Both the position numbers and the translations under genes were made by a program. Shown piece after piece: positions 2,879 through 27,150 of a stretch of DNA of 27,150 bases; position 1 is the first letter of the stretch, and every line of letters begins with the position of its first letter. The stretch comes from a virus. The stretch is taken from UHGV virus genome UHGV-0189314; one strand, given 5' to 3'. The notes under the pieces were generated by a model. The model searched no databases. It had not been told where the DNA came from and saw only the letters and a program-made list of their open reading frames with translations.

Positions 2879-3085
2879 TTAGCTGTTTTTTATGAATCCG
2901 TTGACGACCCATCCGACAAATCTGAGAACACCATATATCAGCAAGGCACATGTCAGTGAAGTCAATATATCAAGCAGTGAGAAGCCTTGCGTATCTGTTG
3001 GTGAAAATAAAAGACCAAAGATGAACACCAGTGTAGCCAGCAGAATGCCCAGTCTATGGAACCCGTTCGAAATAGTGTTTTGCAT
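2879..3085 (-). CDS. Small two-TM membrane protein (68 aa) between lysis genes and cos; possible moron
   Basis: Minus-strand ORF with two hydrophobic helices (LGILLATLVFIFGLLF and LTSLTCALLIYGVLRFVGWVV). Occupies the position and orientation of bor in lambda, but has no lipobox. Confidence 0.35.
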   Translation of the reverse strand: MQNTISNGFHRLGILLATLVFIFGLLFSPTDTQGFSLLDILTSLTCALLIYGVLRFVGWVVNGFIKNS

Positions 3086-3255
3086 TTTTGTTTTCCGTAT
3101 CAGGTTGTAATGGTTTAGTTATTTTAGCATCTGGATAATGAGGTTCTAATCGTCTGGATATACCGGAAGCGATGGGGGGCGTTTGTTGAGTCTGATATTT
3201 ATTAAAATGATAACTTTTTCTCATTTTTACGGGTCCTTTCCAGAATCCGAAACAC

Positions 3256-3269
3256 CGGGGGTCGGTGGA
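3256..3269 (+). other. cosN-like cohesive-end site (approximate)
   Basis: GGGGGTCGGTGGA-CGCGCAAAAACG-CGCTATTTATGAGATTTTTT parallels lambda cosN and flank GGGCGGCGACCT-CGCGGGTTTT-CGCTATTTATGAAAATTTT (recalled). The CGCTATTTATGA block is identical, and the site lies ~220 bp upstream of the Nu1 start, as in lambda. Confidence 0.5.
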
Positions 3270-3309
3270 CGCGCAAAAACGCGCTATTTATGAGATTTTT
3301 TGAGGGGGT

Positions 3310-3455
3310 GGTTGTTGTTTAATTGTTTGTTATATCTCATTGATAAGTAAGAATAAACAGAAATAAATACAACAACCTGATGATGCTTTTTGATGTGATC
3401 GATGTATGAAATATAAATAAAATCAAATGGTTTCGTAAAAATACAAGGTTGTTGT
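3310..3455 (+). promoter_or_regulatory. cosB-like region with three copies of GGTTGTTGT (R-like terminase small-subunit binding repeats)
   Basis: GGTTGTTGT at 3310-3318 (+), its complement ACAACAACC at 3369-3377, and GGTTGTTGT at 3447-3455 (+); AT-rich spacers. Mirrors the lambda R3/R2/R1 layout between cosN and Nu1. Confidence 0.45.
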
Positions 3456-3487
3456 ATCGTTTTTTATCGATGGCTTATGGAGAGGAG

Positions 3488-3994
3488 ATGGCCTGTTTAT
3501 TGAATAAAAGCGATATGGCCTCCTCCATCGGTATATCCGTTCAGGCATTTGATAAATGGGGCGTTCCTCCTGTTGAGCGTCGGGGAAGGGAAGTTTTTTA
3601 TGATGTTAAAACCGTGCTGGAAATCGATCGCGAGCGACGACAGCACAATCAGAGAGCACCTGATGACGGGAGTGATCTGGAGGAAAGATTACTCCGGGCC
3701 AGAACTGAACTGACGGAAGAACAGGCCGTAGCTCAAAAACTTAAAAATCAGGTAACCGAAGGTAAGCTCATCGATTCAGAGTTCTGTGTTTTCGCCCTCA
3801 GCAAACTGGCGATGGCATTGTCCAGTACGCTTGATTCCATTCCTTTATCCATGCAGCGACAGTTCCCGGATTTAACCCCGCGTCATATTGATTATCTGAA
3901 AACCCTTATCGCAAAAGGAGCGAATCAGTGTGCGCGGGCAGGGGATAAATTGCCGGAGTTACTCGATGAATATATCCAGACAACAACTGAATAA
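3488..3994 (+). CDS. nu1: Terminase small subunit (lambda Nu1-like)
   Basis: RBS GGAGAGGAG then ATG at 3488. C-terminal FCVFALSKLAMALSSTLDSIPLSMQRQFPDLTPRHIDYLK...LPELLDEYIQ aligns with lambda Nu1 ...FCTFVLSRIAGEIASILDGLPLSVQRRFPELENRHVDFLK...IPGLLSEYIE (recalled). 3' end overlaps the A start, as in lambda. Confidence 0.85.
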   Translation: MACLLNKSDMASSIGISVQAFDKWGVPPVERRGREVFYDVKTVLEIDRERRQHNQRAPDDGSDLEERLLRARTELTEEQAVAQKLKNQVTEGKLIDSEFCVFALSKLAMALSSTLDSIPLSMQRQFPDLTPRHIDYLKTLIAKGANQCARAGDKLPELLDEYIQTTTE

Positions 3995-5882
3995 TATGAT
4001 GCTCGCCGTCACAACCGCATTACAGCCACTGATAAGGGCACTGCCGGTGACGCCGGTTGAGTGGGCTGATCAAAATTATTATCTGCCCAAAGAGTCGTCA
4101 TACGGTGAGGGGGAATGGAAAACCCTGCCGTTCCAGGTCGCCATCATGAACAGCATGGGTAATGACCGGATCCGTACTGTTAATCTGATTAAATCAGCGC
4201 GCGTGGGTTATACCAAAATGCTGTTGGGCGTGATCGGGTATTTTATTGAGCATAAATCCCGTAGCAGTCTGCTTTTTCAGCCGACAGATTCTGCAGCTGA
4301 AGATTTTATGAAAGCGCATGTGGAAGCTACATTGCGGGATGTTCCCTGCCTTAAAGCGTTGTCTCCATGGCTGGGCAAAAAACATCGTGACAACACGCTC
4401 ACTCTGAAGCGTTTTTCCTCCGGTGTGGGGTTCTGGTGCCTGGGCGGTGCCGCAGCTAAAAACTACCGTGAAAAATCTGTGGATGTGGTCTGCTATGACG
4501 AACTCTCCTCGTTTGAACCGGATGTGGAAAAAGAAGGCTCGCCGACGCTGCTTGGCGATAAACGTATCGAAGGCTCGGTATGGCCTAAATCCATACGCGG
4601 CTCAACGCCAAAAATTAAAGGCTCCTGCCAGATTGAGAAAGCCGCGAATGAATCTGCGCATTTCATGCGGTTTTATGTCCCTTGCCCTCATTGCGGGAAG
4701 GCCCAGTATCTGAAGTTTGGCGATGATGCGACGCCGTTTGGCCTGAAATGGGATAAGGGTAAACCGGAAACGGTGTATTACCTGTGTGAACATAATGGCT
4801 GTGTGATCCGGCAGTCGGAACTTGACCAGAGCGACGGACGCTGGATTTGTGACAATACCGGGATGTGGACGCGTGATGGCCTTACATTTTACAGCGCCGG
4901 TGATGAGGAGATACCGCCACCGCGCTCAGTCACGTACCACGTGTGGACAGCGTACAGTCCGTTCACCACCTGGGTGCAGATTATCTACGACTGGCTGGAT
5001 GCGCTGAAGGACCCGAACGGCGTCAAGACGTTTATTAATACCACGCTCGGGGAGCCCTATGAAGAGGCTGTGGCAGAAAAACTGAGCTTTGAGTTGTTGC
5101 TGGAAAAAGTCTGCCACTATGGTGCGCAGGTTCCCCTGCGGGTGGTTTACCTTACCGCCGGGATCGACTCCCAGAAAGATCGCTATGAAATTTATGTCTG
5201 GGGCTGGGCTCCCGGCGAAGAAGCCTTTCTGATTGATAAGCAAATTATCATGGGGCGACCGGAAGACGAGGACACCCTGAAACGTGTTGATACGGTGATC
5301 CGGAAAAAATACCGCCATGCTGACGGTACTGAAATTTCCATTTCCCGCGTCTGCTGGGATACCGGTGGTATCGACCAGGACATTGTGTATCAGCGTTCCA
5401 GAAAACACGGCACTTTTTTTGTGCTTCCCATAAAAGGGGCATCGGTGTACGGCAAGCCGGTGATCACCATGCCCAAAAAGCGCAACCAGCGTGGCGTGTT
5501 TCTGTGTGAGGTGGGTTCCGACACCGTCAAGGAAATGCTGTATGCCCGTTTTGCCCTGCCGGTGGTTCCTGCCAGTGAAGCCGCTCCGTATACCTTCCGT
5601 TTTCCGGATAACCCGGACATTTTTTCGGAAGAAGAAGCACGTCAAATCGTGGCGGAAGAACTGGTGGAAAAGGTGGTTAATGGCAGGGTGAAACTGCTGT
5701 GGGATAAAAAAGGGCGACGCAACGAAGCCCTCGACTGCCTGGTATATGCCTATGCTGCCCTGCGTATTTCAGTACAACGATGGCAACTGGACCTTGAGGC
5801 ACTGGCCAGGGCACGAAGAGACGAGCAGGATGAGGATGATATGAGTCTGGAAGAAATTGCGGCTGCACTGAGTGGAGGATAA
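3966..5882 (+). CDS. A: Terminase large subunit (lambda gpA-like)
   Basis: Near-colinear match to lambda gpA throughout (MNISRQQ..., EWADQNYYLPKES, WCLGGAAAKNYREKSVDVVCYDEL, YVPCPHCG, VYGKP, RRNEALDC). Start at ATG 3966, not the ORF-track 3930. Confidence 0.95.
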   Translation: MNISRQQLNNMMLAVTTALQPLIRALPVTPVEWADQNYYLPKESSYGEGEWKTLPFQVAIMNSMGNDRIRTVNLIKSARVGYTKMLLGVIGYFIEHKSRSSLLFQPTDSAAEDFMKAHVEATLRDVPCLKALSPWLGKKHRDNTLTLKRFSSGVGFWCLGGAAAKNYREKSVDVVCYDELSSFEPDVEKEGSPTLLGDKRIEGSVWPKSIRGSTPKIKGSCQIEKAANESAHFMRFYVPCPHCGKAQYLKFGDDATPFGLKWDKGKPETVYYLCEHNGCVIRQSELDQSDGRWICDNTGMWTRDGLTFYSAGDEEIPPPRSVTYHVWTAYSPFTTWVQIIYDWLDALKDPNGVKTFINTTLGEPYEEAVAEKLSFELLLEKVCHYGAQVPLRVVYLTAGIDSQKDRYEIYVWGWAPGEEAFLIDKQIIMGRPEDEDTLKRVDTVIRKKYRHADGTEISISRVCWDTGGIDQDIVYQRSRKHGTFFVLPIKGASVYGKPVITMPKKRNQRGVFLCEVGSDTVKEMLYARFALPVVPASEAAPYTFRFPDNPDIFSEEEARQIVAEELVEKVVNGRVKLLWDKKGRRNEALDCLVYAYAALRISVQRWQLDLEALARARRDEQDEDDMSLEEIAAALSGG

Positions 5883-5885
5883 GTG

Positions 5886-6095
5886 ATGATTTATACACAT
5901 GAGATGCTTTGCGAAGCGCGTCGGGCGCTGCATGAACTGATGATCGGGCGTGCTGTGGCTTCTGTCAGTAAGAACGGACGACAGGTACAGTATTCGCGGG
6001 CGACGATTAATGAATTACGGCGATATATTGAGGAAATTGAAAGTGCGCTTGGAATGTCCGGTCGTCGCCGTGGCCCTGCAGGAATACGACTGTGA
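5886..6095 (+). CDS. W: Head-tail joining protein (lambda gpW-like)
   Basis: ARRALHELMIGRAVASVSKNGRQVQYSRATINELRRYIEEIESALG...RRRGPAG matches lambda W ([28 protein letters not shown]...RRRGPAG). Alternative GTG start at 5883. Confidence 0.85.
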   Translation: MIYTHEMLCEARRALHELMIGRAVASVSKNGRQVQYSRATINELRRYIEEIESALGMSGRRRGPAGIRL

Positions 6096-7663
6096 GCGGG
6101 GGACTGGTGGATCTTCACGGACAACCTTTGCGGCAGAGTATGGGATATTCCGGCGGCGGCTCCGGATTCGGAGGGCAACTGGCTGAATGGTTGCCAGCAC
6201 CGGAAAGTGCCGATGTGGCGCTCTTACCTTCCATTCAGTTGGGTAACGCCCGTGCGGACGATCTGGTCCGTAACAACGGTATTGCCGCAAATGCTGTGGA
6301 AATTCATAAAGACCATATCGTCGGTCACATGTTTCGCCTGAGCTACCGACCCAACTGGCGCTGGCTGGGGATGTCAGAAGCTGATTCGCATGCCTTTATT
6401 GAAGATGTGGAGGCGGCGTGGGTGGAATATTGCGATCCGGTATTTGGTTCGATGGATGTGGAAGGGCGTCGCTCGTTTACCGAATTTATTCGTGAAGGGG
6501 TGGGCGTTCATACGTTTAACGGTGAAATTTTTGTCCAGCCCGTATGGGATACGGAATCCACGTCATTATTCAGAACAAAATTCAAGACCATCAGTCCGAA
6601 GCGCGTCAGCACGCCCGGTTATGGCATCGGCGATCGTTTTATGCGTGCCGGGGTGGAAATCAACCGGTACGGAAAAGCACTGGCCTACCATGTTCAGGAA
6701 GATGACTGGCCCGGTTACGGTGTCAGCAACTGGACACGGATTGCGGCGACGCTGCCCTCCGGGCGACCGGGAATGATCCATGTGTTTCAGCCGCAGGAAG
6801 ACGGACAGACGCGCGGGGCCAACCAGTTTTATTCCGTGATGGAGCGCCTCAAGATGCTCGACACACTGCAGGCCACGCAACTGCAGTCGGCGGTGGTGCG
6901 GGCGATGTATGCCGCGACGATTGAATCCACACTGGATTCGGAAAAAGCATTTGAATATATCGCCGGGGTGGGAGATGGCGGTAAAAATCCCCTGAACACC
7001 ATCATGAAAGGCTATGCGCGCTATTACGCCACCAATACGGTAAAGATGGGTGGGGTTCGTATTCCGCATCTTTATCCGGGGGATTCACTGAATCTGCAGA
7101 CAGCACAGAATGCGGATAATGGTTTCTCTGAACTGGAAAAGGCGCTGTTACGTTACATTGCTGCCGGACTGGGCGTGTCCTATGAGCAGCTTTCCCGCGA
7201 TTATTCACAGGTCAGTTATTCCAGTGCCAGAGCATCCGCCAATGAGTCGTGGCGGTATTTTATGGGGAAACGAAAATTTGTGGCCAGCCGACTGGCGTCA
7301 CAGATGTTTGCCTGCTGGCTGGAGGAAGCCCTTATTCGCGGTGTGATCCGCCCGCCGAAATCCCGTTTTTCATTCTGGGAGGCCCGTTCCGGATGGTGTC
7401 GTGCCGAGTGGATTGGTGCCGGTCGCATGGCAATTGATGGTCTTAAGGAAGTGCAGGAAGCGGTGATGCGTATTGAAGGTGGTTTAAGCACGTACGAGAA
7501 AGAGCTGGCCCTGATGGGCGATGACTATCAGGAGATTTTCCGCCAGCAACTGCGTGAAAGCCAGGAGCGACAGGCTGCGGGTCTTCCCCGCCCCATCTGG
7601 ATAAAGGACACGTTTCAGCAGCAGATCCGACAGACAACGGGAGAAAAAGGCGATGCGTCGTAA
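6092..7663 (+). CDS. B: Portal protein (lambda gpB-like)
   Basis: GTG start overlapping the W stop (GTGA). Long colinear identity to lambda gpB (GGGSGFGGQL, GNARADDLVRNNG, FRTKFKTISPKR, HVFQPQEDGQTRGANQFYSVMERLKMLDTLQ, SYEQLSRDYSQVSYSSARASANESW). Confidence 0.95.
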   Translation: MSGGLVDLHGQPLRQSMGYSGGGSGFGGQLAEWLPAPESADVALLPSIQLGNARADDLVRNNGIAANAVEIHKDHIVGHMFRLSYRPNWRWLGMSEADSHAFIEDVEAAWVEYCDPVFGSMDVEGRRSFTEFIREGVGVHTFNGEIFVQPVWDTESTSLFRTKFKTISPKRVSTPGYGIGDRFMRAGVEINRYGKALAYHVQEDDWPGYGVSNWTRIAATLPSGRPGMIHVFQPQEDGQTRGANQFYSVMERLKMLDTLQATQLQSAVVRAMYAATIESTLDSEKAFEYIAGVGDGGKNPLNTIMKGYARYYATNTVKMGGVRIPHLYPGDSLNLQTAQNADNGFSELEKALLRYIAAGLGVSYEQLSRDYSQVSYSSARASANESWRYFMGKRKFVASRLASQMFACWLEEALIRGVIRPPKSRFSFWEARSGWCRAEWIGAGRMAIDGLKEVQEAVMRIEGGLSTYEKELALMGDDYQEIFRQQLRESQERQAAGLPRPIWIKDTFQQQIRQTTGEKGDAS

Positions 7664-9269
7664 TTTATCGCATATTGCCGCCATGGCATTTAATGAGCCG
7701 CTTTTACTGGAGCCCGCCTATGCGCGGGTTTTCTTTTGCGCGCTGGGTAAAGAGATGGGGGCCGGAAGCCTTACCGTTCCTCAGCAGGCTGTTCAGCTTG
7801 ATGCTGATGGTATGCAACTGGCTGTGACTGACTATATGGCGGGCGGTCAGCGTCCGGCAAAGAGTTACCAGGTGAAGAATGGCATTGCCATTCTGCCGGT
7901 GAGCGGCACGCTGGTGCATAAACTGGGTACCCTGCGGCCTTACTCCGGCATGACAGGCTATGACGGTCTGACGGCCCGCCTTCAGATGGCGGTGAATGAT
8001 CCGGATGTGCGCGGCATTTTGCTGGATATCGACAGCCCGGGCGGTCAGGCTGCCGGGGCGTTTGACTGTGCTGACATGATTTACCGCCTGCGGGAACAGA
8101 AGCCCGTGTGGGCGCTGTGTAATGACATGGCCTGTTCAGCCGCCATGTTGCTGGCGGCAGCCTGTACGCGTCGGCTGGTCACGCAGACGGCAAAAATTGG
8201 TTCGATTGGTGTGATGATGGCGCACACCAGTTACGAGAAACAACTGGCACAGGAAGGGGTGGACATCACGCTGATTTACTCCGGGCAGCACAAGGTTGAC
8301 GGCAACAGTATTCAGGCATTGCCGGCAGGTGTGCGTGCAGATTTTCAGCGCCGTATTGATGAGGCCCGCCGGATGTTTGTCGACAAGGTGGCACGTTATA
8401 CGGGGCTGAGCGCTGAGGCGGTGATGAATACCGAAGCAGCCGTTTATGACGGTCAGGCAGGCATTGATGCAGGCCTGGCTGATCAACTGATTAATGCTGC
8501 AGATGCCGTTGAAGTGATGGTTTCTGCACTGAATGAATCTGTAACACAGGAGGAAACGATGACAGTTAAAAATCTCACCGTTGCTGAAGCGGTGGTCCAG
8601 GAAAATCAGCGCGTGATGGGGATCCTGAATTGTCAGGAGGCGAAAGGGCGCGAGCAACTGGCGCAAATGCTGGCAGGTCAGCCTGGAATGACGGTTGAGC
8701 AGGCGAAAACGTTGCTGGCTGCTGTGCCGGTTGCCGGTACTGACAGCACGGGTGATCAGATTATGGCGCTGCCGGAAGCAAAGGGGCGTGAGCAACTGGC
8801 ACAGATGCTGGCAGGTCAACCGGGGATGACGGTGGCGCAGGCGAAAGCGTTTCTGGCGGCAGCCCCTGCTGCCGGTGCTGCAGGCACAGGCGAACAGATT
8901 ATGGCGTTACCAGAAGCAAAAGGGCGTGAACAACTCGCGCAGGCGCTGGCTGAACAGCCGGGAATGACCGTTGACCAGGCCAAAACGTTACTGGCGGCGG
9001 CACCGGTTGCGGGTTCTGCAAGTGTCGGCGAACAGATTATGGCGCTGCCGGAGGCGAAAGGGCGCGAACAACTTGCACAGGCACTGACAGAACAGCCAGG
9101 AATGACGGTGGCGCAGGCGAAAACGCTGCTGGCAGCCGCGCCGGCGGCATCGCAACCGTCACAGGAAACACTTTTTGATCGCTTTATGGCACAGCATGCT
9201 GCCAGTGCGGTTTCCGGTGGCGGAACTGCCGGGCGCGGGGAGGAAGACCTGCTGATGAGTATGCCGTAA
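7653..9269 (+). CDS. C: Head maturation protease / scaffold (lambda gpC-like, S49 family) with repeat-expanded C-terminal domain
   Basis: N-terminal ~300 aa match lambda C / ClpP-like S49 protease; the C-terminal ~230 aa consist of four 46-aa tandem repeats. Start overlaps the portal stop. Confidence 0.9.
   Translation: MRRNLSHIAAMAFNEPLLLEPAYARVFFCALGKEMGAGSLTVPQQAVQLDADGMQLAVTDYMAGGQRPAKSYQVKNGIAILPVSGTLVHKLGTLRPYSGMTGYDGLTARLQMAVNDPDVRGILLDIDSPGGQAAGAFDCADMIYRLREQKPVWALCNDMACSAAMLLAAACTRRLVTQTAKIGSIGVMMAHTSYEKQLAQEGVDITLIYSGQHKVDGNSIQALPAGVRADFQRRIDEARRMFVDKVARYTGLSAEAVMNTEAAVYDGQAGIDAGLADQLINAADAVEVMVSALNESVTQEETMTVKNLTVAEAVVQENQRVMGILNCQEAKGREQLAQMLAGQPGMTVEQAKTLLAAVPVAGTDSTGDQIMALPEAKGREQLAQMLAGQPGMTVAQAKAFLAAAPAAGAAGTGEQIMALPEAKGREQLAQALAEQPGMTVDQAKTLLAAAPVAGSASVGEQIMALPEAKGREQLAQALTEQPGMTVAQAKTLLAAAPAASQPSQETLFDRFMAQHAASAVSGGGTAGRGEEDLLMSMP
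8559..9269 (+). CDS. nu3: Putative nested in-frame scaffolding protein (lambda Nu3 analogue)
   Basis: Internal in-frame ATG at 8559 preceded by strong RBS CAGGAGGAAACG. In lambda, Nu3 is translated from an internal start in the 3' part of C. Inference by analogy. Confidence 0.45.
   Translation: MTVKNLTVAEAVVQENQRVMGILNCQEAKGREQLAQMLAGQPGMTVEQAKTLLAAVPVAGTDSTGDQIMALPEAKGREQLAQMLAGQPGMTVAQAKAFLAAAPAAGAAGTGEQIMALPEAKGREQLAQALAEQPGMTVDQAKTLLAAAPVAGSASVGEQIMALPEAKGREQLAQALTEQPGMTVAQAKTLLAAAPAASQPSQETLFDRFMAQHAASAVSGGGTAGRGEEDLLMSMP
8628..9180 (+). repeat. Four tandem copies of a 138-bp (46-codon) coding repeat inside the C/Nu3 scaffold domain
   Basis: The EAKGRE-encoding codons recur at 8637, 8775, 8913 and 9051 (period exactly 138 bp). 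Peptide units: (Q)EAKGREQLAQ[M/A]LA[G/E]QPGMTV[E/A/D]QAK[T/A][L/F]LAA[V/A]P[V/A]AG...[D/E]QIMALP; copies are diverged, not identical. Confidence 0.85.
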
Positions 9270-14713: not shown

Positions 14714-15296
14714 CGATATCAGGAGCATACTGCCGGTCAGTGCCAGCCGGGCAGAGCGGGTGGTGGACTGTGTCGCCGGAGATATGCTGTCAGATATAGC
14801 GGTCTGCCTGATCCGCTATGTGAAAAATCCCGATTTATGTCCTGCTGAATTGCTGCCATGGCTGGCCTGGGAAATGGCGGTGGACACCTGGAATGAACAC
14901 TGGACGGAGACGGAAAAAAAGTCTGCGATAAAACGTGCTGCTTACATCCACCGCCACAGAGGGACTAAAGCGGCGCTGATGGCATCGCTGGCTGACAGTC
15001 CCTTCCGGTCGCAGATTGTTGAGTGGTATGAGCAGACCCCACCCGGGGAGCCGTATACCTTTCGTTTGAACGTGGAGCAGAAGGATTTACCGGTGCTGAT
15101 GAATGATCATCAGGATCTGAAGCATGCGGTACTCCGTGCCAAAAATCTGCGTAGCTGGTTCAGTATTCACGTTTACGGGAACAGCACAGGGCGGGGATTT
15201 GGTTACGGTTATGTGATGGCGACAGAAAAAATCAGAAGTAACGGTGTGATAACAAAGACAGTGCCCACTGGCGGGCAGAGTGAGGCAGGAGTATGA
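14706..15296 (+). CDS. I: Baseplate / tail protein I (P2 gpI-like)
   Basis: NPDLCPAELLPWLAWEMAVDTWNEHW matches P2 I (NPDTCPANLLPWLAWAFSVDRWDEKW); start overlaps the J stop. Confidence 0.85.
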   Translation: MNDDIRSILPVSASRAERVVDCVAGDMLSDIAVCLIRYVKNPDLCPAELLPWLAWEMAVDTWNEHWTETEKKSAIKRAAYIHRHRGTKAALMASLADSPFRSQIVEWYEQTPPGEPYTFRLNVEQKDLPVLMNDHQDLKHAVLRAKNLRSWFSIHVYGNSTGRGFGYGYVMATEKIRSNGVITKTVPTGGQSEAGV

Positions 15297-16552
15297 ATGG
15301 ACTGATTCTGACAACGTCCGGCACTGCAGAAATTGAAGCAGCATATCAGAACGGGCAAACCGTGACCGTCCGGCATGTTCTGCTTGGTGACGGGGGCGGG
15401 CAGGCATTGCCATCCACGCCGGATGAAATGGCAGCAATGACATCATTGTACGGCGAATTTGGGCAGGAACCCTTTTCCGACGGTGCGGTGGAGGAGGGCT
15501 TCATCAGCGGGGATATTGTGATTGACTGTAAATCATACCCCGGTAAAACCCTTCGTGAACTGGGTATAATTAGCGACAGCGGTACGCTTATCGCGTACGG
15601 ACGTTATCCGGACACCTTTTTACCAGACCAGACGGACTCTGTTATCAAGGAAGTTATTCTGACGCTGGTTCTTGGGCTGACGCACGCACAAAACGTGGTG
15701 CTGGAAGTTGATCCGGACAGGGCCATTATTACTCAGGAAATCGGAGACAGACGCTATCTGCAACGAAAAAAGAATCTTTCGGATGTGGAAGACAAGGATG
15801 AGGCTGTTAAAAACCTCGGATTAAAATCCACGGTGGACAAGGCAAAAAATGCCGTTCAGCGTGATGGTGACACCATGACCGGGGATCTGAAAATCCGTGG
15901 TGTTAATGCGCTGAGGATTTTCAACGAAGCCTTTGGTCTGATTTTTCGTCGTTCGGAAGAGTGCCTGCACCTTATCCCTACCAGTGAAGGTCAGGGCGAG
16001 AATGGCGATATTGGTCCACTTCGCCCGTTCACTATTAATCTGCGGACGGGTGAAATATCCATGTCGCATAAAGTGTCTATTGGCGGTGGTTCGCAGGTCA
16101 ATGGTGCGCTGGGTATCGGCGTTCAGAATGCCTTGGGCGGTAACTCAATTGCTTTCGGGGATAACGATACTGGCCTGAAACAGAATGGTGATGGCCTGCT
16201 GGATGTTTATGCCAATAGCGTGCATGTGTTGCGTTTTCAGAGTGGCAGTATCCAGAGTAATAAAGCTGTAAACGTTACAGGACGGGTAACACCGTCAGAC
16301 TACGGAAACTTTGATGCCCGTTACCAGACCAAAACAGGCGGCGTGCAGGATGTGCGTTATGGTTCCGAAATGTATTACACCCCGGGAGGTAACCAGATAT
16401 CCTGGACATTTCGCTCACCTTCAGGCCACGGGTTATCCGGTATTAATGTGCAGGAAACCGGAAGTAATTCGGCGGATAACATCGGCGGTGTGTATTACCG
16501 ACCGCTTCAGAAACTGATTAACGGTACCTGGTATAACGTGGCGAGTGTTTAA
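15293..16552 (+). CDS. H: Tail fibre protein (P2 gpH-like)
   Basis: C-terminal ALGGNSIAFGDNDTGLKQNGDGLLDVYANS ... GNFDARY ... YRPLQKLINGTWYNVASV matches P2 H (ALGGSSIVLGDNDTGFKQNGDGILDVYANS ... FDSRY ... FRPIQKYINGTWYNVAQV). Confidence 0.9.
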   Translation: MNGLILTTSGTAEIEAAYQNGQTVTVRHVLLGDGGGQALPSTPDEMAAMTSLYGEFGQEPFSDGAVEEGFISGDIVIDCKSYPGKTLRELGIISDSGTLIAYGRYPDTFLPDQTDSVIKEVILTLVLGLTHAQNVVLEVDPDRAIITQEIGDRRYLQRKKNLSDVEDKDEAVKNLGLKSTVDKAKNAVQRDGDTMTGDLKIRGVNALRIFNEAFGLIFRRSEECLHLIPTSEGQGENGDIGPLRPFTINLRTGEISMSHKVSIGGGSQVNGALGIGVQNALGGNSIAFGDNDTGLKQNGDGLLDVYANSVHVLRFQSGSIQSNKAVNVTGRVTPSDYGNFDARYQTKTGGVQDVRYGSEMYYTPGGNQISWTFRSPSGHGLSGINVQETGSNSADNIGGVYYRPLQKLINGTWYNVASV

Positions 16553-16554
16553 CA

Positions 16555-17097
16555 ATGTTGCATTTAAAAAATATTACTGCGGGTAACCCGAAAACCGCAG
16601 AACAATATCAGCTGACAAAACAGTATGATGTCACCTGGCTTTTTTCGGAAGACGGCAAAAACTGGTATGAAGAACAGGAGAATTTTGCCAGTGACACCAT
16701 AAAAATGGTTTATACCGGAGACGGAAGCGTGGTGTGGGTCGGTAAGGATGTGACAGGCATTGAACCCCGTAACGCCAGTGTTATTGAAGTTCCTGATATT
16801 ATCGCCAATCGCCGCATTACCGCACCGGGTTACTGGTTTTACCGCAATGATGAATTTGTTTTCGACTACAAACTTAAAGCGGAAGACGAGCGTGATGCCC
16901 TGTTAAAACAGGTCAGCATCATCACCAGTGAGTGGGAAAAAGACCTGCTGCTGGGATTAATCAGCGACGAAGACAGGGAGAAGCTGAAAGCGTACCGCAT
17001 TTATGCGAAATCGCTGCAGGCGATGGGTTTCAGCGCTATTGCGGATAAGACTGCTTACGACAAAATTGCCTGGCCTGAGTCACCACAAAATATCTGA
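16555..17097 (+). CDS. G: Tail fibre assembly chaperone (P2 gpG / Tfa-like)
   Basis: 180-aa ORF immediately after the fibre gene, in the canonical tfa position and size; call rests on position and general resemblance. Confidence 0.75.
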   Translation: MLHLKNITAGNPKTAEQYQLTKQYDVTWLFSEDGKNWYEEQENFASDTIKMVYTGDGSVVWVGKDVTGIEPRNASVIEVPDIIANRRITAPGYWFYRNDEFVFDYKLKAEDERDALLKQVSIITSEWEKDLLLGLISDEDREKLKAYRIYAKSLQAMGFSAIADKTAYDKIAWPESPQNI

Positions 17098-21765: not shown

Positions 21766-21958
21766 CGGCGATATGCTGGATGATATCTGTCAGAGACACT
21801 ATGGCAGCGCCGGACTTAACCAGTCACTGGCGGCGGTACTGGAAGCCAATCCCGGACTGGCTGATATTGGTCCGGTATATCCGGCAGGTGTGGAAATCGT
21901 GTTGCCGGACTGGGTGTATGAACCGGAGGAAAAGGAGACGTTTCAGTTATGGGACTGA
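21740..21958 (+). CDS. X: Tail protein X (P2 gpX-like, LysM-like)
   Basis: DGDMLDDICQRHYG....LAAVLEANPGLADIGPVYPAGVEIVLPD matches P2 X (QGDTLDAICVRYYG...VLAANPGLAELGAVLPHGTAVELPD). Confidence 0.85.
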   Translation: MVKNWRTTDGDMLDDICQRHYGSAGLNQSLAAVLEANPGLADIGPVYPAGVEIVLPDWVYEPEEKETFQLWD

Positions 21959-23037
21959 ATGAATATCTGCCTGATTTCAGCCTGACAGCAGAGGGGGAGG
22001 ATATCACGAAGGCCATAAAGCGGGGGCTGGCTGAAGTGCGTTATACCGATAATGGTGCTGCCACAAAGCGCTCCGATGAACTGATGATAACCCTGTTCAG
22101 TGAGAAGATGGCGCTGCCACCAAAAGGCGCGGTGTTAACGCTGGGACTGGGATTCAACGGAAACCTGGTAAATAAAGGCAGCTTTACCGTCTGCCAGGTG
22201 GCAAGTGGTGGGCCTCCCCGTTGGATCACCATTTATGCCACAGCCGCCCCCATGAATGCGTCCAGGCATGGTGCAGATGTGACTGCACTGAAAACCCGCG
22301 TGTTCAGCGATATTACGCTGGGTGAACTGGTGAAAACGATCGCCACTGAAAATAATCTGGTGGCGCAGGTCTCACCGGCGCTGGCGGAAATCCGTATTCC
22401 GTGGGTGATGCAGTCATCTGAATCGGATGCGTCCCTGCTTTCCCGGCTTGCAGGGATGTACGGTGCCACCAGTAAACCGACGAACGGTTACTGGTTATTC
22501 CTGGAGTATGGCGCATCGCAGAGTACATGCGGCAGGGATGCCCCTGTAATGACCATCACGCCGGACATGGTGTCAGACTGGGATTACCGGGAGGGGGAGC
22601 GGCAGGGCGCATCCGGAGGTGGAAAAGGAACAACAAAAAAAGGGAAAGTGGGTGTCAGATATTTTGACCCTCGCGACGGGAGAACGCGCGAATTTAAAGT
22701 GGATGTGGAGTCCACAGACAAGCGACATCCATTCACTCAGCCGGATCAGGGCACAGCAAAACACTGCGCAGACTCTAAGGTTAAACGTGTGCAGAAAGCC
22801 GGACGCCAGATGACGATAACGTTGCCCTGCAGGCCCGCATTGTTGAAAGCGGGTGCAGAGATGCGTTTTATCACGCAGGGTTTTGGGGGACGCGAGGATC
22901 ATAACTGGCAGGCTGAGTCGGTGGAGTTTTCACTGGCACCGGGGCAGGGATTTACGCTGAATCTGTCGCTGACCACGGATATTTCTGCAAAGGGGAAAGC
23001 CAGTGGCAAGAAAAAAGGCGTCAATTATTTTGGTTAA
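21949..23037 (+). CDS. D: Tail protein D (P2 gpD-like, baseplate hub / late tail gene)
   Basis: Size and several blocks match P2 D (LPDFSLTAEGEDITKAI, PPKGAVLTLGLGF..LVNKGSFTV, TLGELV); terminal gene of the U-X-D trio. Confidence 0.85.
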   Translation: MGLNEYLPDFSLTAEGEDITKAIKRGLAEVRYTDNGAATKRSDELMITLFSEKMALPPKGAVLTLGLGFNGNLVNKGSFTVCQVASGGPPRWITIYATAAPMNASRHGADVTALKTRVFSDITLGELVKTIATENNLVAQVSPALAEIRIPWVMQSSESDASLLSRLAGMYGATSKPTNGYWLFLEYGASQSTCGRDAPVMTITPDMVSDWDYREGERQGASGGGKGTTKKGKVGVRYFDPRDGRTREFKVDVESTDKRHPFTQPDQGTAKHCADSKVKRVQKAGRQMTITLPCRPALLKAGAEMRFITQGFGGREDHNWQAESVEFSLAPGQGFTLNLSLTTDISAKGKASGKKKGVNYFG

Positions 23038-23061: not shown

Positions 23062-24279
23062 ATGTCTGTATTAATTTCGGGTGTGCTGACGGATGGTGCG
23101 GGACTCCCCATGTCCGGATACCATATTATTCTGAAAGCCCGACAGAATACATCCGCAGTGGTTATGAGAACGGTGGCAACAGTGGTGACAGGGCCGGCAG
23201 GAGAATATGCATTTGAGGCTCAAACCGGAATATATGATGTTTATCTTCGTTCGTGTATTGAAAGAGAATATTGTGTCGGTGATATTTGGGTTTACGACGA
23301 TTCTAGGCCCGGTACACTGAATGATTTTCTGACCGCTCTCGATGAGGGCGACTTGAAACCGGATGTGGTGAAACGCTTCGAAGAAATGTTGGCGCAGGCG
23401 CAGCAGAGCGCGGAAGCGGCAGCGGAAAGCGAACGACAGTCCGGGCAACACGCAGCTGATGCGCAGAAGATTAAGGATGATTGCCAGATGCTGGCGGATA
23501 ACGTACAGCAGAATGCAGAAGCCGTTGCCGAAGATAAACAACGCGTTGAACATCTGGCCTCAGAAGTTGAGTTGAACGCTGGGCAGGTGCAGCAGAGTAT
23601 TACAGATGCAGTAAAGCAGGCTCAACAGGTAGCAGATGACGCTGCATCCAGTGCCGAGGAATCAAAGAACAATGCGCAGGAAGCAAAACAGTACAGGGAT
23701 GAGGCACAACAGATTATTGATAGTCTGAATGCAACAAATGCCACCACAATGGATAAAGGGCTGGTGCAACTGTGTAGTGATACGGACAACGACACCGAGG
23801 AGCTGGCTGCTACGCCAAAGGCAGTCAAAGCCGTCATGGATGAGGTTAAGGGAAAAGCGCCGCTGGACAGCCCTGCGTTCACTGGCATGCCAACCACCCC
23901 CACCCCTTCGCAGGATGCGTCCGGTTGTGAAATTGTAAATGCTGAATTTGTTCGGGCATTGATTGCTGCAACGTCATCAGGTTCGTATTCAACCGATTCA
24001 GTGGTTCCGCTGGTAATTAATGGTGCACAACTCCAGTCCGCTCATCAGAGCAGTGGACCACTGGTGATAAACAAGGTGCAATTTCAGCACGTCCGTCAGA
24101 CCAGAACCAATGCCCCCCTGGTGGTCAACAAAGCACTGATCCAGTCCGCTCATCAGAGCAGTGGACCACTGGTGATTAACAAGGCGCAACTTCAGCACGG
24201 TCGTCAGGCCAGAACCAACGGCCCCCTGGTGGTTAACCGTATGGGGTTGAGTTTTGCATTCGTTACCCCTTTGCAATGA
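23062..24279 (+). CDS. Second tail fibre: lambda-Stf-like N-terminus, coiled-coil region, repeat-containing C-terminus
   Basis: N-terminus MSVLISGVLTDGAGLPMSGYHIILKARQNTSAVV...VYDDSRPGTLNDFL matches the lambda Stf / prophage tail-fibre N-terminal domain (MAVKISGVLKDGTGKPVQNCTIQLKA...VYEDSQPGTLNDFL). Middle GLVQLCSDTDNDTEELAATPKAVKAVMDEVKGKAPLDSPAFTGMPTTPT matches the conserved fibre motif also in P2 H. Confidence 0.8.
   Translation: MSVLISGVLTDGAGLPMSGYHIILKARQNTSAVVMRTVATVVTGPAGEYAFEAQTGIYDVYLRSCIEREYCVGDIWVYDDSRPGTLNDFLTALDEGDLKPDVVKRFEEMLAQAQQSAEAAAESERQSGQHAADAQKIKDDCQMLADNVQQNAEAVAEDKQRVEHLASEVELNAGQVQQSITDAVKQAQQVADDAASSAEESKNNAQEAKQYRDEAQQIIDSLNATNATTMDKGLVQLCSDTDNDTEELAATPKAVKAVMDEVKGKAPLDSPAFTGMPTTPTPSQDASGCEIVNAEFVRALIAATSSGSYSTDSVVPLVINGAQLQSAHQSSGPLVINKVQFQHVRQTRTNAPLVVNKALIQSAHQSSGPLVINKAQLQHGRQARTNGPLVVNRMGLSFAFVTPLQ
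24007..24240 (+). repeat. Near-identical tandem coding repeat (2 x 108 bp plus a partial third) at the C-terminus of the Stf-like fibre
   Basis: Copies at 24007-24114 and 24115-24222 differ at only a few positions; each encodes PLV[I/V]N-x-(A/V)Q-x-Q-SAHQSSG / PLVIN-K-x-Q-x-QH-x-RQ-x-RTN. Also generates the antisense artefact ORF 23998-24276. Confidence 0.75.
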
Positions 24280-24309
24280 AAACTAACTTTATGAAATGAG
24301 GGTTAAATT

Positions 24310-25473
24310 TTGAATATCATCGATATGGAAGGTTTCTGTCAGATCCCGGCAAACCGTGAGCTTACCAGTTCTTACTCAGCATCAACAATCATGTCGTTGC
24401 TGAAAGAGTACGGTGTCACACTCATCACTGAAACAACCATAGGCACCACACCTTCTTCAGTCCAGCGTAGCACGCAGACCGTTTATGGTATCGACAGGTC
24501 GGGGTTGGTTTTAAGTGCAACAGGAGGACGTATTGCATTTAAAGTTCCGCTTCCTGACATAAGTGAGTCTGCCGTGCAAATGGGATTTCGTCTTACTCTG
24601 GGTGAGGGAACAAAATATTCTTCAGGTCTTTCCGTCATTTCGGTGGGAGGGTGTACGTTTTTGACGCCTTATCCGGCAGAAGCCGCCAGTTATTACTACG
24701 AAATTTTTGTTACTTGGGATGGCGTTAAATGCACAGCGGACTTGTATTGCAGTGGAGCCTTGTCGCAAACAGGCACGTTCTCCCCCGCAAGAACAGACAG
24801 CGTATCAGTCACCATTGGGGTAACCAGTGGTTATATTTTTTCCTCAGGCGTTACAGGTACGCTGATGCTGGGAGATATGTACTGCGCAACGGTGGCATAT
24901 AACGACGAAAACATCGCAGAAGCCTCTCCACTGGGTAGTATTGAGGTGAGATACAGTGAGGTTACTCAGTTTGAGGGAGGTCGTGCAGAAAACTCACTGG
25001 GGGAAGATATTGTTACAGGACTGAACACACCGACTAGTGATGCTGGTTACCTGCTGCTGGGGGCGTCCACGGATGCGGCAGTGGCAACGTTTGCTGATAT
25101 TGATAATAGAGGTGGAGAGTTGATTGGCATTAAAACAGCTGTCACATACAGGAGTTCAGCCACGCCAAACAACTATCTGGCGTGGAATACGGGCTGTGAA
25201 AGTGGCAGCGGGGCAATAACAGAAGAGACGGAACTAAACGCTGACCAGTCCAGCTGGACTACGGTTAAACAATGCTTTATGAATCTGCCCGGTAGTGAAG
25301 ATGCTTTCGGTGAGGGGAATCTGACGTTCACGGCCTCCCTGTATAACAGAAAAATATCTGAGGACAATCCTGTATCCCGACACTATCGCGTGATGAGAGA
25401 GGTGCTGAATGTCTCCGGTGTTGAGGAGAAGGATATAGAGGTTGAGGACAATAGTGCAGGTCGATCGCAATGA
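24310..25473 (+). CDS. Hypothetical protein (387 aa), Ser/Thr/Gly-rich, beta-rich; no family recognised
   Basis: Probable TTG start at 24310 (RBS GAGGG 8 nt upstream) or ATG at 24325; 30 nt after the Stf-like gene. No signal peptide or recognisable motif. Candidate distal fibre / receptor-binding component or accessory cargo. Confidence 0.5.
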   Translation: MNIIDMEGFCQIPANRELTSSYSASTIMSLLKEYGVTLITETTIGTTPSSVQRSTQTVYGIDRSGLVLSATGGRIAFKVPLPDISESAVQMGFRLTLGEGTKYSSGLSVISVGGCTFLTPYPAEAASYYYEIFVTWDGVKCTADLYCSGALSQTGTFSPARTDSVSVTIGVTSGYIFSSGVTGTLMLGDMYCATVAYNDENIAEASPLGSIEVRYSEVTQFEGGRAENSLGEDIVTGLNTPTSDAGYLLLGASTDAAVATFADIDNRGGELIGIKTAVTYRSSATPNNYLAWNTGCESGSGAITEETELNADQSSWTTVKQCFMNLPGSEDAFGEGNLTFTASLYNRKISEDNPVSRHYRVMREVLNVSGVEEKDIEVEDNSAGRSQ

Positions 25474-25886
25474 GGATATTTATCGTCGCCAGCGGGACAG
25501 CGGGGGATGAAGCAAGAGCTTAATGACCTGGAGGATTTACGCTCAATCAGAGAGATGACGATTAGTAATTAGCAGTCAATTCTGGGCTTTTGGGTTGCAC
25601 GCTTTTCGCCCAGAATTGTGCGTCAATTATCCCAGAAAAAATTAATAAGTTACAATCAGGCAAAAAATTTCCTCTGCAAAACCAAAAAGATTTTAATATA
25701 ATCAATCGGTTAAAGGCGAAGGCGGCGCAGGCAAATGGTGCAAACAATCATCTAAAAATCTTGTTTTTTGCTTTAAATACAGTTTGTTATTATGTTTTTT
25801 GAGACTCTACCAGAGTGACAACATACGCCCGCTACGGTTTTGCGGGCGTAAGATAATTAAGAATTTTATATGTATTATAATTAACT

Positions 25887-26666
25887 TTATATAAGAGTGT
25901 TTTGCAGCCAGTTTTTTATCGTTATATTGACTTCCTTTGCGTGAGTAATATTTAGAGCATGATTAGCGTCGGGAATGACTTCAAGCTTAGAATGTGCAAT
26001 CATTTTGTGCATTTGAATTGCTTTCTCCAAAGATATCCCCGTATCTCTGGCACCATGAATAATCAGGGTGGGGGTTGTGATTATCTGGATTCTTTCTGAA
26101 ATGTCGTCGCGCTCCAGCATTGCATTCATGGCATTTCTGATGTTTTCAGGCTTATGGCCTAGCCATACTTGTCTCCATGTCTCTGCTTCAGAAATATTAT
26201 TTCCGAAAAAAACGGGTAATAATGAGGAAATTATATTTTCCTTTATGATTGGGTCTTGCCATCCATCACATAACTCCATGTAACTGGAAGCGATTTCTGG
26301 CGGATCCTGCTCTGCCTGAGTTGCCATAAGGATTAACCCTGATAAACGTTCCGAATGTGAAAGAGCAAATCGTAAAGATATATATCCGCCCATTGACATC
26401 CCCCCTAAAACAAACTTATCTAGTTGTAGTAAGTCTGCAACCATTAAAATATCATCGACGATATCATAGAGCGAGAATGCTTCTGTTTTTTCACTGTTTT
26501 TATCAAACCCCCGAACATTAATACAAACAACTCTGTGTTTTTCTTTTAGTTCGTCAAGCTGATATTTAAACATTTCATTATTCATGAAAAATCCATGAAC
26601 GAATATTACAGGGGGATTGTTTTTATTTGTTTCAGTGTATCCAGAATCAGTAAACGTAAAATTCAT
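25887..26666 (-). CDS. Alpha/beta-hydrolase-fold protein (esterase/lipase-type serine hydrolase), low-GC cargo gene
   Basis: HGFF oxyanion-hole motif, nucleophile elbow GGMSMGG (G-x-S-x-G), acidic residue in HGARDTG, and His in DANHALN in the canonical order Ser-Asp-His. RBS GGAGGG upstream of the minus-strand ATG. Strongly AT-rich codon usage unlike the phage structural genes. Confidence 0.8.
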   Translation of the reverse strand: MNFTFTDSGYTETNKNNPPVIFVHGFFMNNEMFKYQLDELKEKHRVVCINVRGFDKNSEKTEAFSLYDIVDDILMVADLLQLDKFVLGGMSMGGYISLRFALSHSERLSGLILMATQAEQDPPEIASSYMELCDGWQDPIIKENIISSLLPVFFGNNISEAETWRQVWLGHKPENIRNAMNAMLERDDISERIQIITTPTLIIHGARDTGISLEKAIQMHKMIAHSKLEVIPDANHALNITHAKEVNITIKNWLQNTLI

Positions 26667-27150
26667 GAGCCCTCCATTATTTAGACGGTTATGTTGTATA
26701 TTTCACTAATGATAGGGAAGAGTTTATTGTTCTGCCGCACAGAAATCTACCTGTCAAAACCCTTCTGACGTTTATCTACCAAGATGGAGATAATATTGTC
26801 AAGTATTCGTTAGGATACAAAAGTATCGGATTAATAGTAAAATCTAAGAAGTATTCGTGCGGCTGTACGCCTCATTGACTTTTCCTTTCTCGCAAGACAT
26901 AGCTAATTCTCGGCACGTTGATGAGCTATTTTCATATATTGTGCAGTAAGCGTTTCTCTCGGAGGTGCCGGCAAGAACAATACATCCTAGGTTTTTCTGA
27001 TTAGTGCCGCTTATGCATCGATGATAAGGGATATTTGTTCTGTGAGCTTGGCGGGAATGGTATCGCCAGCATCATTGGCTTTGGTCCAGTAAAAAGAGAC
27101 GCAGAAAGATGCACAACAGGCACTACGCGTCATGCATGGATTTAGGGCGC

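Follow-up and report, generated by a model that had tools for sequence, protein, structure and literature searches.

A short fibre gene and a separate gene after the last tail gene

The virus genome UHGV-0189314 (27,150 nucleotides (nt), hereafter the window) carries, downstream of its gpD-like final tail gene, two genes that we call ORF1 and ORF2 and that are the sole long open reading frames on the + strand in this region. They lie at 23062-24279 and 24310-25473 with a gap of 30 nt between them, as an earlier note on this DNA had placed them. ORF1 encodes a short Stf-type side or collar fibre of 405 amino acids (aa) with an ATG start, as indicated by matches in Pfam, PHROG and the Protein Data Bank (PDB). 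Its collar/anchor domain (aa 1-134; 23062-23463, + strand) covers the complete Pfam phage_tail_N profile (PF08400, positions 1-134 of 134, E = 1.3e-53) and matches the N-terminus of the Ur-lambda Stf (PDB 9e7m, E = 1.5e-16), which bears out the lambda-Stf-type N-terminal anchor that had been recognized in the sequence. Furthermore, aa 1-202 match the collar spike gp40 of Vibrio phage XM1 (PDB 7kjk, E = 2e-5 to 3e-5), and several PHROG 'tail fiber' families were matched as well. The anchor is followed on the same strand by an Ala/Gln/Glu-rich shaft (23464-23862), comprising a segment judged by eye to be a coiled coil (aa 135-227) and then a Phage_fiber_2 domain (aa 228-267, Pfam, E = 1.9e-12); aa 195-293 match the Mu fibre S (PDB 5yvq). 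A conserved hinge, KAPLDSPAFTGMPTTPTP...EIVNAEFVRALIAA (KAPLDSP...FVRALIA), and a linker complete this part of the protein (23863-24006, + strand), and it is here that blastn places the left recombination joint described below.

The C-terminus of ORF1 consists of a candidate adaptor module (24007-24276, + strand) of five repeats of 17-19 aa with the pattern PLV[IV]N+xQLQ... The units are 17, 19, 17, 19 and 18 aa long, start at 24007, 24058, 24115, 24166 and 24223, and read in order PLVINGAQLQ..., PLVINKVQFQ..., PLVVNKALIQ..., PLVINKAQLQ... and, as the final variant, PLVVNRMGLSFAFVTPLQ. At the DNA level, Tandem Repeats Finder reported a 108-nt unit present 1.9 times (24032-24237, 90% matches). 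That is, the repeat-bearing C-terminus that the note had seen exists both as five protein units and as a tandem duplication of the DNA. The motif was not found outside the ORF1 C-terminus in a six-frame translation of the window, aa 310-405 had no Pfam match, and no T4 gp10-like docking domain was detected in ORF1 with Pfam or PHROG. A profile of the repeat module searched against the PDB returned nothing but noise at E <= 10. A triple beta-spiral of the adenovirus/reovirus type, suggested by a resemblance of the PLxV...L.L repeats, was rejected for want of any support from the PDB profile search. Reading the repeats as a shufflon or invertible segment was discarded too, as neither an invertase nor any inverted copy is present, and the repeats lie in coding sequence and show conservation at the protein level.

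A separately encoded protein with a predicted lectin-like fold

ORF2 (387 aa, + strand) starts with a TTG codon at 24310, 7 nt downstream of a Shine-Dalgarno sequence, GAGGG (24298-24302, + strand). A fusion of ORF1 and ORF2 by read-through or frameshifting, conceivable from the frame that they share in the window, was rejected: three in-frame stops lie between them (24277, 24292 and 24304), and the relative frame of the two genes varies among relatives. Therefore, ORF1 and ORF2 are separate polypeptides. The TTG start is found in nearly all members of the ORF2 family (besides the window, in loci L003, L006, L012-L015 and L021-L046), with a GGAG-type Shine-Dalgarno sequence upstream, the exceptions being a GTG in L011 and, confined to the divergent L016, L018 and L041, an ATG. 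This conserved weak start may set the stoichiometry of ORF2 relative to its anchor protein.

Ser, Thr and Gly together make up 32% of ORF2, in keeping with the Ser/Thr/Gly-rich character noted earlier. No match to ORF2 was obtained in Pfam (E <= 0.1) or NCBIfam (0.01), nor to the chaperone profiles Caudo_TAP (PF02413) and DUF4376 (PF14301), whose members have about 180-200 aa. The earlier view that ORF2 can be placed in no family thus holds for Pfam and NCBIfam, but not for PHROG, where it is a full-length member of PHROG 8291, a family of unknown function (E = 9.3e-103, aa 1-347 on profile positions 1-346 of 349). The earlier note had held that its reading would fall if ORF2 matched a known chaperone or adhesin family, or if the pair were a commonly annotated Stf/Tfa unit; ORF2 matches no such family and the pair does not carry that annotation. 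No sequence match to ORF2 was found in the PDB, gp38 included, and neither a signal peptide nor a lipobox is present in the sequence of its N-terminus.

Structure prediction of ORF2 alone, which had been proposed as a check, gave a confident AlphaFold2 model from a 23-sequence alignment (predicted local distance difference test (pLDDT) 82, predicted template modelling score (pTM) 0.80). It consists of two beta-sandwich domains (aa ~1-195 and ~218-348) and a disordered tail (aa 358-387), and fits the concanavalin-A-like (ConA-like) lectin/glucanase fold, a curved two-sheet beta-jelly roll. ORF2 is thus predicted with confidence to fold as a two-domain lectin-like protein. In BFVD, look-alikes of the full architecture (template modelling (TM) score 0.56-0.67, E down to 1e-13, identity 12-16%) were found among proteins of ~320-370 aa from the siphophages AchV4, JS26 (three paralogues), Kokobel1, JC01, VpV262 and Enc34. 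As judged from the models, the closest full-length structural matches of ORF2 are tail-module proteins of other phages. The AchV4 look-alike carries the name 'virion structural protein', a label given in that phage to 35-38 kDa tail-module proteins that were found in virions by liquid chromatography-tandem mass spectrometry (PMC7996906), the look-alike itself not being tied to a specific gene.

The repeat module and ORF2 recur on four types of anchor

About 26 relatives of ORF2, from Escherichia coli and Raoultella, were found at 90% clustering among 5.8 billion proteins, and when 1.84 billion representatives were searched exhaustively with a profile, 17 clusters only were recovered (50% identity), all of them stand-alone proteins of <=368 aa, several fragmentary, without a single fusion. 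A scan of species-representative genomes yielded one ORF2-family locus, in E. albertii. Among 5426 complete E. coli genomes, about 61 (~1%) have a detectable copy, every one annotated 'hypothetical', as is ORF2 itself by the Prokaryotic Genome Annotation Pipeline (PGAP).

In nearly every locus examined, the gene upstream of the ORF2 relative ends in an array (PLxINxxQLQSGxxxxE)n, which as a rule has a variant unit, PLxxNxxG[LV][SH]FA[FV]V, at its end, the stop codon following 1-30 nt before the ORF2-like start. Among a further 25 loci in IMG/VR, a repeat-bearing gene lies directly upstream of the ORF2 relative in 22; in two of the other three, a fibre gene and a Tfa gene are interposed, as in L014, and the third is ambiguous. 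The synteny that the earlier note had suggested looking for in other prophages therefore recurs, in the fetched loci as well as in IMG/VR. The N-terminal parts of the upstream genes, however, belong to four unrelated anchor types. The first is the lambda Stf-N anchor of the window, also present in Raoultella (L004-L006), in a Mu-like prophage (L007), in a lambdoid prophage (L009), where it occupies the canonical stf site after J and lom, and in L011. The second is the baseplate wedge protein gp48/YmfQ of Mu type, lengthened to 320-390 aa (L003, L013, L014 and L015), and the third a P2 gpH-type fibre N-terminus (E. albertii L012). The fourth is a P2 gpI lengthened to 300 aa, which bears a divergent 18-aa repeat (VPVKAINGTTINAGNVLS) and is accompanied by a divergent ORF2 relative (L016, similarly L018); the gpI of the window has a normal length of 196 aa. 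As the same repeats and ORF2 are found on differing anchors, the moving unit must be the repeat module plus ORF2, with its left boundary inside the upstream gene. The comparison of loci thus lends good support to the exchangeable cassette suspected here, although what is exchanged is not the whole gene pair. In another E. coli genome (P0027), a predicted protein of 202 aa joins an unrelated 59-aa N-terminus to a hinge and repeats that match ORF1 aa 268-405 with 100% identity, and is apparently what a deletion has left of the same cassette.

The cassette replaced the distal part of an ancestral fibre

A related prophage of strain 08-00022 (L002) has the same tail module, and after gpD it encodes an intact phage_tail_N fibre of 757 aa, a DUF4376 protein of 191 aa and then DinI. 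In this prophage lineage it is therefore normal to find an Stf-type fibre after gpD; the position reported for the window was right, but it is not the oddity that it had been taken for. In blastn comparisons, homology between the window and L002 ends at 23925, that is at ORF1 aa 288 within the hinge, and restarts at 25498. The replaced stretch amounts to 1572 nt in the window (23926-25497) and to 1580 nt in L002, where it encodes the distal fibre and the chaperone. At the right recombination joint, 55 nt (25498-25552, + strand) with 80% identity to L002 11952-12006 remain from the 3′ end of the displaced DUF4376 chaperone gene. This remnant lies within a stretch 3′ of ORF2 that PGAP annotates as a pseudogene ('DUF4376, frameshifted, missing N-terminus'). 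On the left side, homology with the Raoultella cassette starts at window position 23809 (blastn). The earlier suggestion of a fibre truncated by cargo insertion is thus correct in that the cut went through an ancestral Stf fibre and its DUF4376 chaperone (23925/25498), but the insert is a conserved module under purifying selection rather than arbitrary cargo. Just 3′ of the chaperone relic, an imperfect inverted repeat (25566-25629) has 22-nt arms with 77% complementarity and a 20-nt loop. It may represent a terminator or else a scar of recombination, and it received no call in the terminator scan.

Exchange, co-divergence and selection

ORF1 and ORF2 are both intact in the three E. coli carriers that were compared in detail (H1, L019 and L020). 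Relative to L019 and L020, gpD of the window differs by 58 and 156 nt, with a synonymous divergence (dS) of 0.16 and 0.62, whereas just 20 and 12 nt differ in the 2.4-kb fibre locus (23062-25473), the dS of ORF1 and of ORF2 being <= 0.04. The same holds for the six E. coli carriers, among which gpD is strongly divergent but the cassette is not. The mosaic boundary is sharp, and the joint falls in the interval that separates gpD from ORF1. A divergent gpD next to a near-identical cassette indicates that the fibre locus was transferred recently between diverged backbones.

Across loci, the identity of ORF2 copies correlates with that of the last 52 aa of the partner protein (Mantel r = 0.77, p = 2e-4), but not with that of its first 150 aa, i.e. 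the anchor (Mantel r = 0.22, p = 0.09). The ORF2 copy of the Stf-anchored L011 is 74% identical to gp48- and gpH-anchored copies. The ratio of nonsynonymous to synonymous divergence (dN/dS) of ORF2 is 0.22 relative to Raoultella and 0.19 relative to a Mu-like copy, and that of the repeat module, in the frame of ORF1, is 0.26 relative to Raoultella. Both the repeat module and ORF2 are therefore under purifying selection.

Genomic context of the locus

The window region is 99.9% identical to the chromosome of E. coli Sx181-0-1 (L001), where it forms the right end of a prophage that is inserted next to prfC and combines lambda-like head genes with a contractile tail resembling that of P2. The whole segment is present in 6 of the 5426 complete E. 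coli genomes. The tail module of the window contains a complete P2-type fibre and chaperone pair, as previously described: the primary fibre H, with a gpH-type N-terminus (15293-16552, + strand; Pfam Phage_tail_fib, 8e-15), and the chaperone G (16555-17097, + strand; Pfam Caudo_TAP, 3e-21). The gpD-like final tail gene (21949-23037, + strand; Pfam Phage_GPD and phrog_52, 5e-90) is directly followed by ORF1, so that the placement of a second fibre right after gpD was also correct.

Downstream of ORF2, the end of the prophage (25474-27150) is a cargo region of low GC content (0.36-0.40). Its minus strand encodes an alpha/beta-fold hydrolase (25887-26666, Abhydrolase_1, 1e-28), and a fragment of a capsid gene and a small ferredoxin are also present. 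In L001 a DinI-like gene lies just past the point that matches the end of the window. Window positions 25897-27142 are 87.7% identical to positions 7377-8623 of another prophage (L015), which also has a gp48-anchored cassette. Upstream of the terminase genes, the GC content drops to 0.37 at 3001-3500, with a high GC skew. A scan for promoters and terminators yielded nothing exceeding the shuffled expectation.

A putative two-polypeptide accessory fibre

We propose that ORF1 and ORF2 make up a two-polypeptide accessory fibre, in which the repeat module docks a separately encoded receptor-binding tip of lectin fold; we would put the chances of this reading somewhat above even. The collar domain of ORF1 would clamp onto the tail or neck at a ring junction, and would be followed by the elongated shaft, the KAPLDSP...FVRALIA hinge and the five beta-strand repeats ending in ...GLSFAFV, so that the repeat module would be presented as an adaptor at the distal end. 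ORF2, translated separately from its own Shine-Dalgarno sequence and conserved weak TTG start, would dock on this adaptor through its two-domain lectin fold (~350 aa) and act in the virion as the distal receptor-binding unit, one that probably recognizes carbohydrate. It might recognize, and possibly cleave, a surface polysaccharide and thereby confer a second receptor specificity that could be exchanged with the cassette. The cassette, i.e. the adaptor repeats and ORF2, would have come in by recombination at the conserved fibre hinge, displacing the distal part of the ancestral Stf fibre (757 aa) together with almost the whole of its DUF4376 chaperone. The pair of repeats and lectin-like protein looks like an uncharacterized portable host-recognition module.

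As to where ORF1 would attach in a P2-type tail that already has a full H/G set, structures of related domains make the neck or a tube junction the likelier site, one at which two fibre systems could coexist. In Ur-lambda, 12 copies of the StfN domain (aa 1-94) encircle the gpV/gpM ring junction as a collar (PMC12617516), so that lambda offers a precedent for the tube/tip junction, and a homologous domain of gp40 fixes six trimers to the neck of the contractile-tailed Vibrio phage XM1 (PMC10457771). The gp48 protein of Mu, on the other hand, is present in one copy per baseplate wedge and bears a docking loop for the gp49 fibre (PMC11915804). An obligate trimeric fold of the repeat array is disfavoured by its occurrence on gp48, and since the module is found on wedge-monomeric as well as on presumably trimeric anchors, each chain would bind its partner independently. 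We suggest, more tentatively and as less likely than not, that the array may be a previously unrecognized, anchor-agnostic docking element of which a single chain suffices to hold one lectin-fold protein of PHROG 8291. If so, the same receptor-binding unit could be mounted on trimeric fibres (Stf-N, gpH-N) or on the wedge-monomeric P2 gpI and Mu gp48, the rim of the baseplate would act as a second site of receptor binding, and a short 'socket' that can be transplanted would become available to engineers who wish to swap receptor-binding proteins (RBPs).

Several observations weigh against a two-polypeptide fibre. An AlphaFold2 monomer of the repeat module alone gave low-confidence short beta-strands (pLDDT 50). 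Adjacent genes co-diverge by linkage alone, and the Mantel result is therefore no proof of contact. In L014, L032 and L033 a fibre gene and a Tfa gene separate the repeat-bearing gene from the ORF2 relative; adjacency of the two is thus usual but not obligatory, and in the IMG/VR locus L041 the upstream arrangement is ambiguous. In the lambdoid L009 the array (5850-6100) has no terminal GLxFA unit and the ORF2-like gene is frameshifted after its first ~10 codons, indicating a decaying copy. No match to ORF2 was found by tblastn in any isolated phage among 50,697 INPHARED records, and there is therefore no proteomic or electron microscopy record for the family. The lectin fold is common to polysaccharide lyases and glycosidases, so binding and cleavage are inseparable on the basis of the fold. 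Finally, ORF1 has the status of a pseudogene in the PGAP annotation ('prophage tail fiber N-terminal domain-containing protein, missing C-terminus').

L014, which lies on a 249-kb plasmid, and L032 are Mu-like tail remnants with the order gp48 with repeats, fibre, Tfa and ORF2-like gene. In L009, the missing terminal repeat unit and a shortened ORF2 N-terminus had the appearance of co-variation, which the frameshift in this decaying copy explains.

Alternative explanations

ORF2 might be a fibre-borne depolymerase, i.e. a jelly-roll lyase or glycosidase similar to PL7, PL14 and PL36 or to GH16, that cuts capsule or O-antigen, in which case the architecture proposed above would be unchanged. 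We regard this as unlikely, if still worth reckoning with. The likeness of ORF2 to such enzymes is confined to the fold (7-14% identity), and legume lectins and non-catalytic carbohydrate-binding modules score as well as the enzymes against the ORF2 model. PL7 lyases require a His, but there is not a single invariant His in the ORF2 alignment.

A second alternative, which we consider improbable, is that ORF2 is an assembly chaperone for the repeat C-terminus, comparable by position to Tfa/gpG or T4 gp38, and not a receptor-binding part of the virion. Its place directly 3′ of a fibre gene is the usual site of fibre chaperones, the reduction of the DUF4376 gene to a relic leaves ORF1 of the window with no other dedicated chaperone, and the weak TTG start points to ORF2 being produced in smaller amounts than its partner. 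ORF2 is, however, twice the size of Caudo_TAP and DUF4376 proteins, has no similarity to either and has a predicted two-domain lectin fold. Moreover, in Mu-like and P2-like loci the ORF2 relative stands between the baseplate protein and a fibre gene that has its own Tfa, and the structural look-alike in AchV4 is annotated as a virion structural protein.

The annotation by PGAP amounts to a third view, namely that the locus is debris, ORF1 being a truncated Stf pseudogene and ORF2 an unrelated cargo gene (moron) inserted into the fibre gene. This would accord with an ORF1 called incomplete and a frameshifted DUF4376 relic, with the end of homology to the intact fibre at aa 288, with the clear cargo at the right end of the prophage, such as the low-GC alpha/beta hydrolase, and with the decayed copies elsewhere (L009 and P0027). 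We hold it to be very improbable, as the repeat module and ORF2 recur on four unrelated anchors that include the essential baseplate proteins gpI and gp48, as both are under purifying selection (omega 0.26 for the repeats in the ORF1 frame and 0.19-0.22 for ORF2), and as both ORFs are intact in H1, L019 and L020. The pseudogene call itself was also made on gp48-type anchors, by models without the extension. That ORF2 is a lysogen-benefit or exclusion factor unconnected to the virion (e.g. one that binds or modifies surface sugars), as its unknown function and its location near the prophage end beside other cargo might allow, is hardly credible given an N-terminus with neither signal peptide nor lipobox, no promoter-like site above chance upstream of ORF2, and relatives that are embedded in late tail operons, between gpI or gp48 and the fibre gene, at many loci.

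The way in which PGAP treats these genes appears to be general. A 'missing C-terminus' pseudogene was called for every repeat-bearing anchor (23062-23985 in the window, 3498-4082 in L013 and 2085-2648 in L014), and these calls cover both the Stf-N type (window) and the YmfQ/gp48 type (L013 and L014). The label arises because the protein models of PGAP do not include the repeat extension, and as a consequence repeat-bearing anchors are mostly missing from protein databases. A search of the 5.8 billion proteins for the repeat module recovered two fragments with a single sequence and four with a profile, a rarity that is likely due to gene callers discarding these genes as pseudogenes. If ORF1 and ORF2 do form a two-polypeptide fibre, a systematic error of PGAP that extends to baseplate genes that must work would be corrected.

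Comparison with known systems

In temperate coliphages, and likewise in delivery particles derived from phages, host range is set by the fibres, and chimeras of lambda Stf have already been engineered for in-gut delivery (PMC11338833). The proposed accessory fibre would, if confirmed, represent a natural and compact 'socket plus plug', made up of ~50-130 aa of repeats and one protein of ~350 aa, that evolution has shuttled among lambda-, Mu- and P2-type tails, and would hence be a candidate for the rational transfer of receptor specificity. It would also give a role to a protein family annotated as hypothetical in every genome. The stakes are moderate, in that the principle of a separate adhesin is known, the ORF2 family is small and the basis is wholly computational.

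With lambda Stf and Tfa, ORF1 has in common the collar domain, the shaft, the Phage_fiber_2 domain and the hinge (KAPLDSP...FV.A.IA), but it has neither a gp37-like distal rod or receptor-binding domain nor an intact chaperone; by its anchor it is thus a member of the Stf family, but one without the long distal rod, the C-terminal receptor-binding domain and the cognate chaperone (Tfa/DUF4376) that characterize this family. Past the hinge, there are only five short repeats in ORF1, and the distal function apparently comes from a separate gene. The XM1 spike gp40 shares a homologous N-terminal Ig-like domain and likewise belongs to a phage with a contractile tail, in which it shows how a second fibre can be carried without competing for the baseplate site; it is, however, a single polypeptide of 839 aa.

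In phages of the T2/T6/S16/PP01 type, the gp37 fibre receives its tip adhesin, which contacts the receptor, from the separate downstream gene gp38 (e.g. PMC12892980). The arrangement described here is similar in that the fibre gene is directly followed by a separate gene, for whose product tip binding is proposed. The two are nevertheless unrelated in sequence and fold, ORF2 being predicted to be a ConA-like jelly roll with two lectin-type beta-sandwiches. The gp38 adhesin has glycine-rich motifs and forms a polyglycine-rich (polyglycine-II) sandwich. A further difference is that the putative docking element is here an array of 17-aa repeats, which is also found on baseplate proteins. The ~350-aa tail-module proteins of AchV4, JS26, Kokobel1 and JC01 share the two-domain architecture of the ORF2 model, with sequence homology undetectable.

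Conserved anchors that dock an exchangeable, separately encoded RBP are known from the gp37 adaptor of K1-5/SP6, from gp66-gp63.1 of G7C and from the tailspikes (TSPs) of CBA120. In the anchor-branch RBPs of Klebsiella phages, too, the anchor bears the element on which a separately encoded RBP docks (PMC13579863). These branched or adaptor-based systems follow the same modular logic as ORF1 and ORF2, with no domain in common. The plug proposed here is a small lectin-fold protein and not a trimeric beta-helix tailspike, and the candidate docking element occurs on fibres as well as on wedge-monomeric proteins. A literature search, which did not extend to subscription journals, retrieved no paper on the repeat module, the ORF2 family or their association. 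By analogy, the function proposed for the pair most resembles that of gp37/gp38 and of the adaptor-RBP systems of K1-5, G7C, CBA120 and Klebsiella phages.

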